IMG/VR virus record: IMGVR_UViG_3300020160_002689
Location: 20,134 to 84,133 of that record
Strand: one strand, 5' to 3'
DNA length: 64,000 bases
From: a virus
Taxonomy: Duplodnaviria > Heunggongvirae > Uroviricota > Caudoviricetes
Below the pieces are notes generated by a model, which made no database searches, was not told the DNA's origin, and worked only from the letters and a program-made list of their open reading frames with translations. Shown piece after piece: positions 9,497-40,342 of the stretch (positions within the stretch are counted from its first letter, which is position 1; every line of letters starts with the position of its first letter). Position numbers and translations under genes: made by a program.

Positions 9497-9524
9497 AAAA
9501 GTCCAGATTACTCTGGACTTTTCA
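9495..9524. terminator. bidirectional terminator hairpin
   Basis: AGTCCAGA-ttac-TCTGGACT stem with an A-run before and a T-run after, between convergent genes. Confidence 0.5.
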
Positions 9525-10335
9525 TTTCAACATCTTTACCAAACAAAATTACATCAACTCTATTTGAAATTTTACCAAGTGGTGGAAGCTCCACTGTGTC
9601 AACTACCCATCTTTCAATGATATAGTTTGGATCCTTTCTTGCATTGTGTTTTGCAGGAAGTTTTTCAATCTCTTCAAATGAGAAAGGAGTAAGAACTCTC
9701 TTTCTTTGAACATAAGTACCTCTTTTGAAGAAGGTTGGGTAATCATTCCAGTTTACTCCTTTAGTAAATAACATTTCTTGTTTATCTGAACCATTCTTCC
9801 CATTAAGAGCAGAATGTGAGAAATAGTTTTGAGCTGCCATACTGATAGAGTTTTTAGTTGCATCTTGCTCTCTCCAAAGTAAAGAGTTCACTGCTTCATC
9901 AAGAGTTGGTACATTGTACACTCTACTATCAAATCTTGGTAGTTTATCTGCCTTTTCAGGAAGATATTTACTAAGTTCTCTGTTAAAAAAAACAGATGCC
10001 ATTGCAGAAAGGTCACTAATCATTTTGAAAAGTCTTCCATCAAAATAGATAGAGGAATCAATTTTATCAGTGTACCATACAAGAGTGATTTCATCTGACT
10101 GAGTGTAACCACAATTTGCATTGGTTTCTTTCACAAGATACTTGGTGGTTTCAATCATAAGATTAGATAATCTTTCATCATAAGGTCTTTTCAGTCCTTT
10201 AGTGAATTTTGAGAATCCTTTTCCATCAAGTCTTGCAATGACTGGAATTCTTGGCATCATTTTGATACCACATGTTTGTGCTTCATAATCTTTCATACGA
10301 TTTCCGAAAGCATCTTTTTTGTTTGTTGTTTTCAT
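9508..10335 (-). CDS. Thg1-like protein (tRNA-His guanylyltransferase family / tRNA 5'-end repair)
   Basis: ARLDGKGFSKFT ... KRPYDE ... GYTQSDEITLVWY matches Thg1/TLP signatures (RIDGKKFHEFS, KPND, GESDEYSF); 275 aa. Confidence 0.8.
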   Translation of the reverse strand: MKTTNKKDAFGNRMKDYEAQTCGIKMMPRIPVIARLDGKGFSKFTKGLKRPYDERLSNLMIETTKYLVKETNANCGYTQSDEITLVWYTDKIDSSIYFDGRLFKMISDLSAMASVFFNRELSKYLPEKADKLPRFDSRVYNVPTLDEAVNSLLWREQDATKNSISMAAQNYFSHSALNGKNGSDKQEMLFTKGVNWNDYPTFFKRGTYVQRKRVLTPFSFEEIEKLPAKHNARKDPNYIIERWVVDTVELPPLGKISNRVDVILFGKDVEMKSPE

Positions 10336-10492
10336 AAACTACATTTTCCTTTTTTTTCAAATTCCTTTGAAATTTTTGTTAACTCACCTTTTGACAAAGG
10401 AAAATGATAGTTAATTAATTAATTTTGGTTACTTAAAACCGATACAAAGATAAGAATAGTTTTTAATTATCCTAATTAATTCTTCATATTTG

Positions 10493-10566
10493 TGGAGCCA
10501 ATGGGTATCGAACCCACCACAGTCTGGTTGCAAACCAAACTCGCCTGCCTTGGTACATGTGACCCC
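10493..10566 (-). tRNA. tRNA-like, Ala(UGC)-type anticodon arm, noncanonical D-arm
   Basis: T-arm GTGGG-TTCGATA-CCCAC; acceptor GGGGTCA/TGGCTCC with G3:U70; anticodon loop UUUGCAA. I could not find a regular D-stem. Confidence 0.4.
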
Positions 10567-10575
10567 AAATATTAG

Positions 10576-10649
10576 TGGAGGATACCGGAGTCGAACCGGT
10601 GGCCTCTTGCGTGCAAGGCAAGCGCTCTAGCCATCTGAGCTAATCCCCC
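10576..10649 (-). tRNA. tRNA-Ala(UGC)
   Basis: Cloverleaf folds by hand: acceptor GGGGGAT/ATCCTCC with G3:U70, D-stem GCTC/GAGC, anticodon stem CTTGC/GCAAG with loop CUUGCAC, T-arm ACCGG-TTCGACT-CCGGT. Confidence 0.7.
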
Positions 10650-10655
10650 CATTTT

Positions 10656-37998: not shown

Positions 37999-38014
37999 TT
38001 AATATATAGATTAT
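37999..38014 (+). promoter_or_regulatory. promoter-like motif TTTAATATATAGATTAT immediately before the ATG
   Basis: Identical core to the element upstream of the small ORF at 33081. Confidence 0.35.
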
Positions 38015-38236
38015 ATGAATAGTAATGAAAAAGTTATTGAACAATTTAAGAAAGTACATGATGATTTATATGATTACTCATTAGTTAATTATATAAATAA
38101 TACAACAAAAGTTAATATTATATGTAGAAAACATGGAATTTTTAGTCAAACTCCACATCATCATAAGAGAGGTGGTGGTTGTCCAAAATGTACAAAGGGT
38201 AAAAAAGAAAGTATTTTGACAAAAGAAATATTATAA
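38015..38236 (+). CDS. small zinc-ribbon protein
   Basis: HHHKRGGGCPKC motif; 73 aa. Confidence 0.4.
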   Translation: MNSNEKVIEQFKKVHDDLYDYSLVNYINNTTKVNIICRKHGIFSQTPHHHKRGGGCPKCTKGKKESILTKEIL

Positions 38237-38728
38237 TTTTATATCTATTTGAGATCCACCTTCACGGTTTTTCATTATTCTTACTCTATCTTCTCTAATT
38301 ATACCTACAAAATCAGCCATATATAATCCTGTATTACCACCACTAAAATTGTAATCATCATTACCCATTGTATTATATATTGGACAAGTGATTAATAGTT
38401 TAAAATTGGTATCTATTAATTCAGTTGCTATTCTTTGAAGAGAGTTTTTTATTACATTAACTCTACTTGTTTCACCTCTACCTACCATAAAGTTATTTAT
38501 GTCTAATAAGAAGTGACTTGGTGTTTCAGTTCTATTATTTAATATAGTATCAATTTTAGAATCTCTTATATAAGAAAGCATAGAAAAAGATGAATTTATT
38601 TCTGGTAACTCAATATGAGAAACTTGTGAAATAATTTCATCTTTAATTTTTTCTTCCTTGAATGTGTAACCTAATAGAGAAATATTTGACTTATTAATTA
38701 ATTCAAATAAATATTCTGTTGGTTCCAT
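38231..38728 (-). CDS. hypothetical protein
   Basis: 165 aa. Confidence 0.45.
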   Translation of the reverse strand: MEPTEYLFELINKSNISLLGYTFKEEKIKDEIISQVSHIELPEINSSFSMLSYIRDSKIDTILNNRTETPSHFLLDINNFMVGRGETSRVNVIKNSLQRIATELIDTNFKLLITCPIYNTMGNDDYNFSGGNTGLYMADFVGIIREDRVRIMKNREGGSQIDIKL

Positions 38729-38732
38729 TAAA

Positions 38733-39056
38733 TTAGTTTAAATGAGTGTTAATCAATTCAGCTAATTTTTCTTTAGTTGTCATTCCTGTACTTCTTTCAA
38801 TAATCTCTCCATTTTTGAAAAGGATTAATGTAGGAATATTTCTAACTCCTAATTCAACAAGAATGTCTCTGTTTTCATCAGCATTTAATTTACCAACTTG
38901 TAATTGTTCCATAAAATCTAAAGAGATTTGATCTACAATTGGTGAAATTTGACGACATGGGCCACACCAAACAGCATGGACATCTATCAAAACTAAACCA
39001 TCTTTAATAAATTCTCCATAAGTTGAAGGAGTTAATTCTACTGCATTTGTTGCCAT
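38733..39056 (-). CDS. trx: thioredoxin
   Basis: WCGPC active site; 107 aa. Confidence 0.85.
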   Translation of the reverse strand: MATNAVELTPSTYGEFIKDGLVLIDVHAVWCGPCRQISPIVDQISLDFMEQLQVGKLNADENRDILVELGVRNIPTLILFKNGEIIERSTGMTTKEKLAELINTHLN

Positions 39057-39085
39057 AATTTTAAATTTGTTTTTGTTTATATTAA

Positions 39086-40342
39086 TTATATTGTGAAAAG
39101 TTTATCTATAACTTCTTTATCAACCTCAGTTTCATCCTCAATCAATATTTTATTTACTTTACCTCTTGTATCATTAACAATTTCTTTTCTAACTGATAAT
39201 TCAAGTAATAACTTAGTTTGTTCATCTAATTCAATATCTTTATCTAATTTATTCTTTTCTAATACAGATATTGCTATAATAGGATCATCATTATATACTT
39301 CAAGAAGTTTTCTGACTAGATTAATTTGTTCTGATAACTTTAGACCTTTTAGATTAGGTATTGCATTAGGTGCATTGTAAACAAGTCTTGAAAGAAGTTT
39401 AATATCTTCTTCACTTACTTCTTTATCAACATAACCAGGTGTATCATAAAAGTAATGTAAATGTTCCCAAATTAGTTTTAGATTTTGATTTTTATTACTA
39501 TAGATATTTCTGATATAGAATAAATAATTATCTGCTTTTAGTCCTTGTAAATTTTTATCATCAAATACTCTTTGATTACTTGATATTAATTTCCAAAGTT
39601 TAACATCTTTATTTTGTGAAACTTTAAGCCATTCAATACATTGAACATCTTTCTGTATATAAAAGAACTCACTTAGTCTATCAATGTATTTAACAAATAC
39701 CTCTAAATATCTTTCTTGAAATCTAACCTTATATGGACTCAAATAAACATTATCACTTAATGCATATTGTAAGATGTTTAACTCAAATTCAGTGAGAGTA
39801 GCATTTAATTCATCTGCCTTTTTTATTATTCTCAATACAGTATGAGAAGGTGTCTTAATATTAGTGATTCTTAATATACCTGTCTCTAAGAATTTTTCAA
39901 ATTCCTCAGTCCAGTAGTATTCATCATTATCAATTGAATATCCAACTGCAGTACAATTAATATCAAAAGAATCAATTACTACTCTTGGTTCTGGAGAATT
40001 AGATTGATATTTTATATAGTTGAACATACCATCTTTAGTAGATTCATTTATACAATAAAAATCTTTTTCTTTAGTCATAAAAGCAATACCATTATAATCT
40101 TCATACCAAATGTCTTCTTTGGTAGAGTGTTCATAAAGTGTTTGAGATTTATCTTGTACTAACTTCTCTAAAATACCATCAAATAAAAATACATCAATGT
40201 CATTTATAACTGCTTTGTTACCTGATACTTCTTCCCAGATTAGGTTTGCAATAGACCCACCAGTAATAAAACCACTTTGAGGAAGACCCCAAGTGGTTTT
40301 AATTTTATCAATTGCTCTTTTAGCTAATTGTTCTACATTCAT
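39086..40342 (-). CDS. Pol-beta-fold nucleotidyltransferase domain protein
   Basis: N-terminal ITGGSIANLIW...NDIDVFLFDG resembles the GG[SA]...DxD heads of CCA-adding/poly(A) polymerase-type nucleotidyltransferases; 418 aa. Confidence 0.45.
   Translation of the reverse strand: MNVEQLAKRAIDKIKTTWGLPQSGFITGGSIANLIWEEVSGNKAVINDIDVFLFDGILEKLVQDKSQTLYEHSTKEDIWYEDYNGIAFMTKEKDFYCINESTKDGMFNYIKYQSNSPEPRVVIDSFDINCTAVGYSIDNDEYYWTEEFEKFLETGILRITNIKTPSHTVLRIIKKADELNATLTEFELNILQYALSDNVYLSPYKVRFQERYLEVFVKYIDRLSEFFYIQKDVQCIEWLKVSQNKDVKLWKLISSNQRVFDDKNLQGLKADNYLFYIRNIYSNKNQNLKLIWEHLHYFYDTPGYVDKEVSEEDIKLLSRLVYNAPNAIPNLKGLKLSEQINLVRKLLEVYNDDPIIAISVLEKNKLDKDIELDEQTKLLLELSVRKEIVNDTRGKVNKILIEDETEVDKEVIDKLFTI

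Follow-up and report, generated by a model that had tools for sequence, protein, structure and literature searches.

The stretch of DNA analysed here (the window, 64 kb of the viral record IMGVR_UViG_3300020160_002689, with a G+C content of 28%) comes from an AT-rich huge phage of the Mahaphage group with a genome of roughly 640 kb. It encodes a Thg1-like protein (TLP) and, about 20 kb away, a tRNA-His(GUG) gene, named type C here, that lacks the encoded guanosine at position -1 (G-1). The nearest relative in GenBank is the uncultured phage LR745206 (634,780 bp), whose TLP is 82.8% identical to that of the window and which is placed in the Mahaphage clade, among its genomes of >634 kb; Bacteroidetes are the predicted hosts of the published members of this clade (Al-Shayeb et al., 2020; PMC7162821). 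Contigs of 84, 587, 640 and 656 kb also encode proteins that are either identical to those of the window or share >90% identity with them, and the relatives compared below include contigs of 587 kb (L239), 221 kb (L243) and 640 kb (L237, a scaffold of 640,004 bp).

ARAGORN detected 21 tRNA genes in the window, distributed in two arrays and all on the minus strand, and this set was confirmed with the Rfam model RF00005, which added two long tRNA-like matches. Within the second array, type C was aligned over all 71 positions of RF00005 with 60.9 bits, with G1 at 29713 and the discriminator C at 29640. Its acceptor stem is fully paired and its anticodon is GUG, and it is the top-scoring tRNA-His of the window and the sole fully paired one. 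Re-inspection of position -1 revealed a T at 29714 and no G, so that the tRNA-His with U at -1 and C73 described in the original prediction holds in both ARAGORN and Infernal. Between its +1 base and the discriminator of the upstream tRNA-Lys there are just a C and a U, and type C starts one base past A73-C74 of that tRNA. An alternative register, in which 29713 would be G-1 and an encoded CCA would follow, was rejected because it loses U8, reduces the T stem to 4 bp and creates a U-U mismatch at 7:66; it is also disfavoured by the fact that Infernal and ARAGORN each place G1 at 29713.

Orthologues of type C were found in at least five related contigs (L239, L242, L243, L237 and L100/L103/L108), as two alleles, G1:C72 and U1:A72, which are joined by compensatory changes. 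In an alignment of seven sequences every cell of the cloverleaf was paired and 8 pairs were changed on both sides, including the change from G:C to U:A at 1:72, whereas none of 500 shuffles reached the observed values and slid controls collapsed. U was present at -1 in all six orthologous sequences, C73 and the GUG anticodon were invariant, and the bases preceding +1 were always A-C-U, even though three different tRNAs (Lys, Phe and Met) lie upstream. Among the 25 distinct phage tRNA-His sequences gathered in this analysis, which are a biased sample, the -1 base was G in 19 and T in 6, five of these six belonging to the type C family. The absence of G-1 in type C is real biology, recurring rather than one-off.

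The best match to type C in GenBank is the tRNA-His of the Bacteroides phage crAss001 (MH675552.1, 3817-3893) and about 27 related records, with 75% identity. This tRNA also has U at -1 and C73 without G-1, and it begins one base past A73-C74 of a tRNA-Met, giving the same A73-C74-U(-1)-G1 junction; it differs from type C in that crAss001 alone encodes the CCA end, and in the absence of a TLP, for which tblastn gave no match with E<1 over the initial 100 kb of this 102.7-kb genome. The GenBank feature for the crAss001 tRNA-His begins at 3818, one base late. A scan of viral contigs with the T-arm pattern of type C was dropped as unspecific, as its matches were mostly tRNA-Gly.

The second element in question, the TLP, matched the Pfam family Thg1 (PF04446) with an E-value of 1.9e-29 (102.7 bits, cut-off 29.2) and the PHROG 4717 'tRNA-His guanylyltransferase' with 5e-81. 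Its best match in the PDB was the Bacillus thuringiensis TLP (BtTLP, 4KGK; 2.3e-42 over residues 8-209), and eukaryotic Thg1 chains matched less well (1e-13 to 6e-9). The palm domain of Thg1 and TLP enzymes carries three catalytic carboxylates, which in human Thg1 are D29, D76 and E77. The corresponding residues of the phage protein, D37, D81 and E82, are present and fall on the RIDG and SDE motifs in alignments to BtTLP and to Candida Thg1, and the RxDG, SDE and WRxQDAxKNS motifs could all be aligned. As BtTLP is the best match, eukaryotic Thg1 is far weaker and the catalytic motifs are present, the protein is classified as a bacterial-type TLP and is predicted to carry out 3'-5' addition on tRNA. 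Both the assignment of this gene in the original prediction and its catalytic residues were thus confirmed, as was its position next to the first tRNA array.

In fact, the first array lies directly upstream of the TLP gene on the same strand, it is split by two homing endonuclease genes, and no terminator-like site was found on the minus strand between its tRNA-Ala and the TLP gene; the order from tRNA array to TLP is kept in L001-L004 and L080. In the 640,004-bp scaffold, a TLP that belongs to the 90%-identity cluster of the window protein lies about 20 kb from type C, with the same spacing as in the window, and the array there has no tRNA-His other than type C. A scan with back-translated TLP motifs did not match L100, L103 or L108, which are genome fragments and hence uninformative on co-occurrence.

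TLP genes were present in 164 phage records of GenBank, and tRNA or transfer-messenger RNA (tmRNA) genes lay within 10 kb of 30 of the 79 TLP loci. Single loci had a tmRNA (L010) or SmpB (L064) near the TLP, and one had an RtcB-like gene within 3 kb of it (L040). The bacterial relatives of the phage TLP, with 50-58% identity, belong to Planctomycetota, Myxococcota and others, and have no bearing on the host. In four Gemmataceae/Planctomycetota genomes (L191, L197, L203 and L219, at ~3001-3950) the TLP gene is followed, after 70-100 bp, by a tRNA-His, and in one phage (L008, 9623-10792) a tRNA-His lies 300 bp upstream of it; G-1 is encoded in both cases, which represent a link between TLP and tRNA-His at the gene level even with G-1 encoded.

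Two further tRNA-His(GUG) genes, types A and B, lie close to type C. The original prediction had described both as encoding G-1. This was correct for type A, which has G at -1 and C73. For type B the status is ambiguous, because the -1 base is G in the ARAGORN register and U in the Infernal register, which starts at 30300, two bases downstream. In both types, the 5' junction reads ATG/G (the slash marking the junction) in every relative, and therefore selection appears to act on G-1 in this system; its retention by the paralogs is an argument for its importance in this host system. Type A has U-U mismatches at 5:68 and 6:67, and these adjacent non-pairs, mostly U-U, are kept across genomes (L239, 17645-17718; L243, 16387-16460; L240, 18638-18711), with A73 instead of C73 in more distant relatives. 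Type B, which is 89 nt long, is kept in L101, L240 and L242.

Table 1. Location of the tRNA genes and of the genes for tRNA-related and nucleotidyltransferase-like proteins in the 64-kb window.
Feature	Position	Strand	Basis or remark
Bacterial-type Thg1-like protein (predicted 3'-5' nucleotidyltransferase family), 275 aa	9508..10335	-	Pfam Thg1, PHROG 4717, 4KGK
tRNA-His(GUG) type C	29640..29713	-	ARAGORN, RF00005; U at -1, C73, no encoded G-1
tRNA-Lys(UUU), immediately upstream of type C	29716..29790	-	ARAGORN, RF00005 alignment
tRNA-His(GUG) type A	30135..30206	-	G-1 encoded at 30207; C73
tRNA-His(GUG) type B, 89 nt, long variable-arm hairpin	30215..30302	-	ARAGORN, Infernal
tRNA array 1 (Met, Tyr, Glu, Tyr, Glu, Glu, Ile, ??, Gly, Gly, Ala)	10575..13516	-	ARAGORN, Rfam
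tRNA array 2 (Lys, Trp, Phe, His, His, Phe, Trp, Lys, His, Arg)	29281..31002	-	ARAGORN, Rfam
RlaP-family (RNA-ligase-associated Pol-beta) nucleotidyltransferase	4087..4875	-	Pfam PF10127, PHROG 388
Compact RtcB RNA ligase, 343 aa	31785..32816	-	Pfam PF01139, PHROG 1075, motifs
YqeY/GatB-like domain protein	33759..34169	-	Conserved beside array in relatives
SmpB (tmRNA partner)	37552..37986	-	Pfam 9.8e-52
Probable Gad2-family Pol-beta nucleotidyltransferase, 418 aa	39086..40342	-	PF26128 on homologues, AlphaFold2/Foldseek
S1-domain protein	58973..60064	+	Pfam S1 3.1e-20

As shown in Table 1, other genes related to tRNA maintenance are present in the window, most of which had been recognized in the original prediction. 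RtcB was confirmed by Pfam (1.2e-26; 94.4 bits, cut-off 27) and PHROG 1075 (5e-42), and all its motifs were present: DMGCG (D66, C69), GNHF (H110), HTGSR (H127), CHN (H208) and SHGAGR (nucleophile H261), which correspond to the metal ligands D95, C98, H203, H234 and H329 and the GMP-accepting H404 of the Pyrococcus horikoshii enzyme. SmpB is full length, its residues 2-143 matching positions 1-141 of the 143 in the profile, and its position is kept in relatives. No tmRNA was detected in the 64-kb window with ARAGORN or Rfam, and the gaps at 32817-33253 and 34170-34696, considered as candidate sites for it, were rejected after Rfam in E-value mode gave no matches. The smaller of the two proteins predicted to have a Pol-beta fold was confirmed as RlaP, with matches to Pfam (1.3e-8; 35.3 bits, cut-off 23) and PHROG 388 (3.5e-20). 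The S1 protein is also real, although it falls outside the region to which the original prediction had assigned it.

These genes had been interpreted as a single module for tRNA repair, which could not be sustained. In six relatives (L237 and L239-L243) the syntenic block consists of the sigma factor, the Gad2-like protein, thioredoxin, SmpB, YqeY and the tRNA array, and RtcB is absent from all of them; in relatives, RlaP is located away from the TLP, and genes for tail fibres and DNA methylases lie between the parts of the putative toolkit. RtcB is strain-specific, the result of an insertion or a loss that occurred recently next to the tRNA array: together with a neighbouring tRNA-like gene and small open reading frames, it is present in the window and missing from the six syntenic relatives, and a search based on RtcB loci gave only relatives of ~50% identity, with no tRNA-His arrays in them. 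Thus, the phage carries several tRNA-maintenance genes that are inherited independently, a loose set gained separately and not an operon-like module.

The larger nucleotidyltransferase, of 418 amino acids, had been described as CCA-adding-like. The description of its head and fold was fair, as the motif A of the head (GG...DxD) is present, with G28, G29, D48 and D50 invariant in 36 homologues, and an AlphaFold2 model (predicted local distance difference test score of 85) gave CCA/A-adding enzymes or poly(A) polymerase as the top seven Foldseek matches (1.5e-6 to 3e-4, probability ~1), with template-modelling scores of only 0.23-0.30. The function was not supported. In class II CCA-adding enzymes, the EDxxR motif (motif D) serves as the protein template for the selection of CTP and ATP. 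Alignment by eye, with the motif definition taken from the literature, showed that this motif is absent from the phage protein, where the conserved stretch is K-T-P-S-H-T-V-L-R and T164 and H167 occupy the positions of the Asp and Arg. Sequence searches revealed a weak match to a Pol-beta head (NTP_transf_6, 1e-4), without matches to the PolyA_pol family of Pfam, to PDB sequences or to PHROG. In contrast, most homologues with 52-97% identity have precomputed matches to PF26128 (Gad2), which were significant (E<=1e-5) in P0003, 97% identical to the window protein, and in P0057, and weak in the others; the window protein itself gave no PF26128 match in a local Pfam search. Therefore, this protein is most likely a Gad2-type anti-defence enzyme and not a CCA adder. 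Gad2 is a phage protein of ~400 amino acids, nucleotidyltransferase-like, which blocks Gabija (Yirmiya et al., bioRxiv 10.1101/2023.05.01.538930). The window protein shares its size and the predicted nucleotidyltransferase domain, and its modelled fold also resembles class II CCA/A-adding enzymes.

Long variable-arm hairpins are present on tRNA-Trp(CCA) (30392-30478), on the type B tRNA-His and on tRNA-Arg(ACG) (29281-29366), all on the minus strand and of 86-89 nt, thus combining a class II shape with class I anticodons beside paralogs of normal length; such forms are also found in L101, L237, L239, L240, L242 and L243, with stem sequences that vary among them. Two tRNA-like genes on the minus strand, at 31598-31722 (125 nt) and 11468-11569 (102 nt), possess well-formed acceptor, D and T arms, but a long insert replaces the anticodon arm and the variable region, without any known intron type being recognized. 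The first of these lies 63 nt downstream of RtcB and was considered as an intron-containing tRNA, a possibility that was rejected: the segment that replaces its anticodon arm and variable region is of 69 nt, and a bulge-helix-bulge motif and a group I intron signal were looked for in this gene and neither was found. Editing of 5' ends in the mitochondrial style, in which mismatches at positions 1-3 would need repair by the TLP, was likewise rejected, as no systematic 5' mismatches were found in the tRNAs; the sole ones were an initiator-like C1-U72 in tRNA-Met and an A1-C72 in an odd gene at 11730-11801. Directly downstream of type C there is a degenerate copy (29545-29636, minus strand) of the tRNA-Ser(CGA) that L239 carries at 18205-18295, with a mutated T loop (GGTGCAATTCC) and called by neither ARAGORN nor Rfam. 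In the 437-bp gap upstream of RtcB, a T-arm-like sequence (AAGGTTCGAGTCCTT; 32850-32915, minus strand) without a matching acceptor stem may be a tRNA remnant, for which Rfam gives no match. No gene for an aminoacyl-tRNA synthetase was noticed in the window, whereas relatives have a HisRS-like gene (210 aa, PF13393; L241, 20213-20845) or a TyrRS gene (L240, 15284-16540) beside the same array.

Genes of the homing-endonuclease type (PHROG 314, HNH, LAGLIDADG and GIY-YIG) were found at 10656-11279, 12079-12726, 28442-29110, 30465-30893, 36652-37521 and 47102-47842. Several lie inside the tRNA arrays, the second of which contains an HNH gene, or separate conserved genes, and their locations vary among relatives. 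The window also encodes two C5 cytosine and one N6 DNA methyltransferases (4864-6075, 16095-16949 and 47892-49058), a dephospho-CoA kinase (13684-14253), a thioredoxin, a sigma factor and an NAD-dependent DNA ligase.

The above results allow a function for the TLP to be proposed. In vitro, BtTLP adds G-1 to C73-containing tRNA-His in a templated reaction (kcat/KM of 5500 M-1 s-1) and also repairs 5'-truncated tRNAs (PMC3061083); in addition, TLPs add G-1 in archaea that do not encode it, and DdiTLP2 does so opposite C73 in the mitochondria of Dictyostelium (PMC3061083; PMC6471195). As the phage enzyme has the same catalytic motifs as BtTLP, from which it differs in being encoded by a phage and in a C-terminal extension of ~30 amino acids, an equal chemistry is expected, including templated 3'-5' addition, G-1 opposite C73 and 5' repair. 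Type C would be transcribed inside its tightly packed array, and, because U-1 is unable to pair with C73, host RNase P would cut at the normal +1 position, yielding a 5'-monophosphate tRNA-His without G-1. The phage TLP would then activate this end with ATP or GTP, add a single G templated by C73 and remove pyrophosphate, to give the G-1:C73 pair required by the bacterial HisRS. On other tRNAs, the same enzyme could replace 5' nucleotides that are missing, a lost G-1 among them, which would explain its retention in relatives with tRNA-His genes that encode G-1. In this mechanism, we infer the site of RNase P cleavage, the addition of G-1 in vivo and its benefit to the phage. Separately from the TLP, RtcB would, where present, reseal tRNAs that metal-independent nucleases have cut, the predicted task of RlaP is to replace lost nucleotides, and SmpB would work with a tmRNA encoded elsewhere in the genome or by the host.

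Because type C recurs, U is always at -1 and a TLP shares the 640-kb scaffold with it, templated addition of G-1 opposite C73 is a sound prediction, and it is tentatively regarded as the most likely fate of type C in the huge phages. The original prediction of G-1 addition or 5' repair by the phage enzyme is therefore biochemically sound, given the activity of BtTLP and the co-occurrence in the 640-kb relative, but it does not extend to a general link. The association between TLP and tRNA-His without G-1 is neither exclusive nor general, and several observations weigh against the proposal. First, crAss001 has the same form of tRNA and no TLP. Second, the more distant TLP-bearing relatives LR745206, L096/L001, L240 and L241 have only tRNA-His genes that encode G-1 in the orthologous array, and every TLP-adjacent tRNA-His found elsewhere, in L008 and in Gemmataceae, also encodes it. 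Therefore, the TLP is more widespread than type C, which can itself occur where the phage has no TLP. Third, TLPs are also present in phages for which no tRNA was detected close to the gene. In the Mycobacterium phage Kalah2 (L244, 19995-35424) there is no tRNA of any kind within 20 kb, and the TLP gene, annotated there as 'tRNA nucleotidyltransferase', has a polynucleotide kinase (Pnkp) gene at a distance of 600 bp and an RNA ligase gene at 13.5 kb. The 20 kb on either side of the TLP in Lak-A1, LR745208, LR756511 and Kalah2 were examined, and no tRNA-His was found in any of them. Finally, BtTLP itself favours 5'-truncated tRNAs over addition at -1 by 5-160 fold (PMC3061083).

Alternatively, the TLP could be a general enzyme for the repair of tRNA 5' ends that, together with RNA ligases and end-healing enzymes, counters host nucleases without any special tie to type C, which would acquire its identity through a host TLP, a tolerant HisRS or a low level of charging that suffices. 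This is the main rival explanation, held with less confidence than templated addition to type C. The absence of a TLP in crAss001, the retention of the TLP in relatives whose array is without type C, the neighbourhoods in Kalah2 and in L040 and the substrate preference of BtTLP all speak for it, and phage Thg1 has been framed as an enzyme for 5'-end restoration (Iyer et al., 2021; PMC7824862). However, it leaves unexplained the conserved presence of a base other than G at -1 alongside the kept C73, and the host system appears to need G-1, as the paralogs retain it. Moreover, a bacterial-type TLP confronted with a C73 tRNA-His without G-1 would add the G anyway (PMC3061083).

It is unlikely that type C lacks G-1 on purpose and permanently, either to escape a host factor that reads the 5' end of tRNA-His or because it acts as a tRNA that is charged poorly or is non-canonical, for example as a decoy, as a regulator or as the substrate of another synthetase. 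The many odd duplicates, with long arms on His, Trp and Arg and the U-U pairs of type A, suggest a diversification of tRNA shapes that would fit such a role, as would the persistence of the form in crAss001 without a TLP and the HisRS-like gene beside the array of L241; yet no defence system keyed to G-1 is known, type C is the sole tRNA-His of the array in the 640-kb relative, and it has kept C73, the known role of which is to pair with or template G-1. Finally, that the loss of G-1 is a neutral accident or type C a pseudogene, and the co-location of the genes a coincidence in a gene-dense phage, is highly improbable, since, although the listed genes are scattered across 36 kb, interspersed with genes for tail fibres and methylases, and RtcB and RlaP lack synteny in relatives, the fully paired cloverleaf with its 8 compensatory pairs, unmatched by any shuffle, and the invariance of U-1 behind three different tRNAs have already largely refuted it for the tRNA itself.

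Most of the genes described above belong to a gene set already described for giant phages. RtcB and Rnl ligases, RlaP, a CCA-adding enzyme and Thg1 have been described as supplements to the tRNAs of jumbo phages, with BcepSaruman and BcepSauron named as carriers of RtcB (Iyer et al., 2021; PMC7824862), and genes for tRNA ligation, SmpB/tmRNA, S1 and CCA addition were listed for the Mahaphage clade (Al-Shayeb et al., 2020; PMC7162821). As BcepSaruman and BcepSauron were also found to carry a TLP, the combination of a Thg1-like enzyme and RtcB in one phage is not the novelty that it was first taken to be. With respect to these surveys, which catalogued the same kinds of genes and did not look at the -1 base of phage tRNA-His, the genes are shown here to be inherited separately. 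A literature search revealed no paper on the -1 base of phage tRNA-His genes and nothing relevant on Thg1 in Bacteroides or Bacteroidetes. What is new is thus a conserved and covarying C73 tRNA-His without G-1 in a clade of ~640-kb phages that encode a TLP, which is also found in the TLP-less crAss001. The arrangement resembles that of archaea such as M. thermautotrophicus and of Dictyostelium mitochondria with DdiTLP2, in which a C73 tRNA-His without G-1 also coexists with a TLP; however, those systems are cellular or organellar and have a single type of tRNA-His, whereas the phage also keeps paralogs that encode G-1 and the pairing of enzyme and substrate is predicted.

The likely mis-annotation of a CCA-adding-like enzyme is corrected here to a probable Gad2-family protein. 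Regarding the TLP, the in vivo role of the bacterial-type enzymes is still open because their hosts encode G-1 (PMC3245924; PMC3061083) and they have no known substrate in nature that would be obligatory, in contrast to the phage genome, in which a G-1-less tRNA-His is present. Therefore, the conserved C73 tRNA-His without G-1 and the TLP in one genome provide a concrete candidate for a natural substrate, and crAss001, which is culturable and carries the same form of tRNA, offers an accessible case for G-1 addition in Bacteroides cells. It is conceivable, though more doubtful than the addition of G-1 as such, that in the ~640-kb clade the phage TLP is required for the histidine identity of a phage tRNA-His that is deliberately without an encoded G-1. 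If this were true, type C would give a bacterial-type TLP its first natural substrate that is obligatory in vivo, the tRNA-His of crAss001 would rely on an unrecognized host activity, and the virus would control the post-transcriptional activation of its own tRNA.

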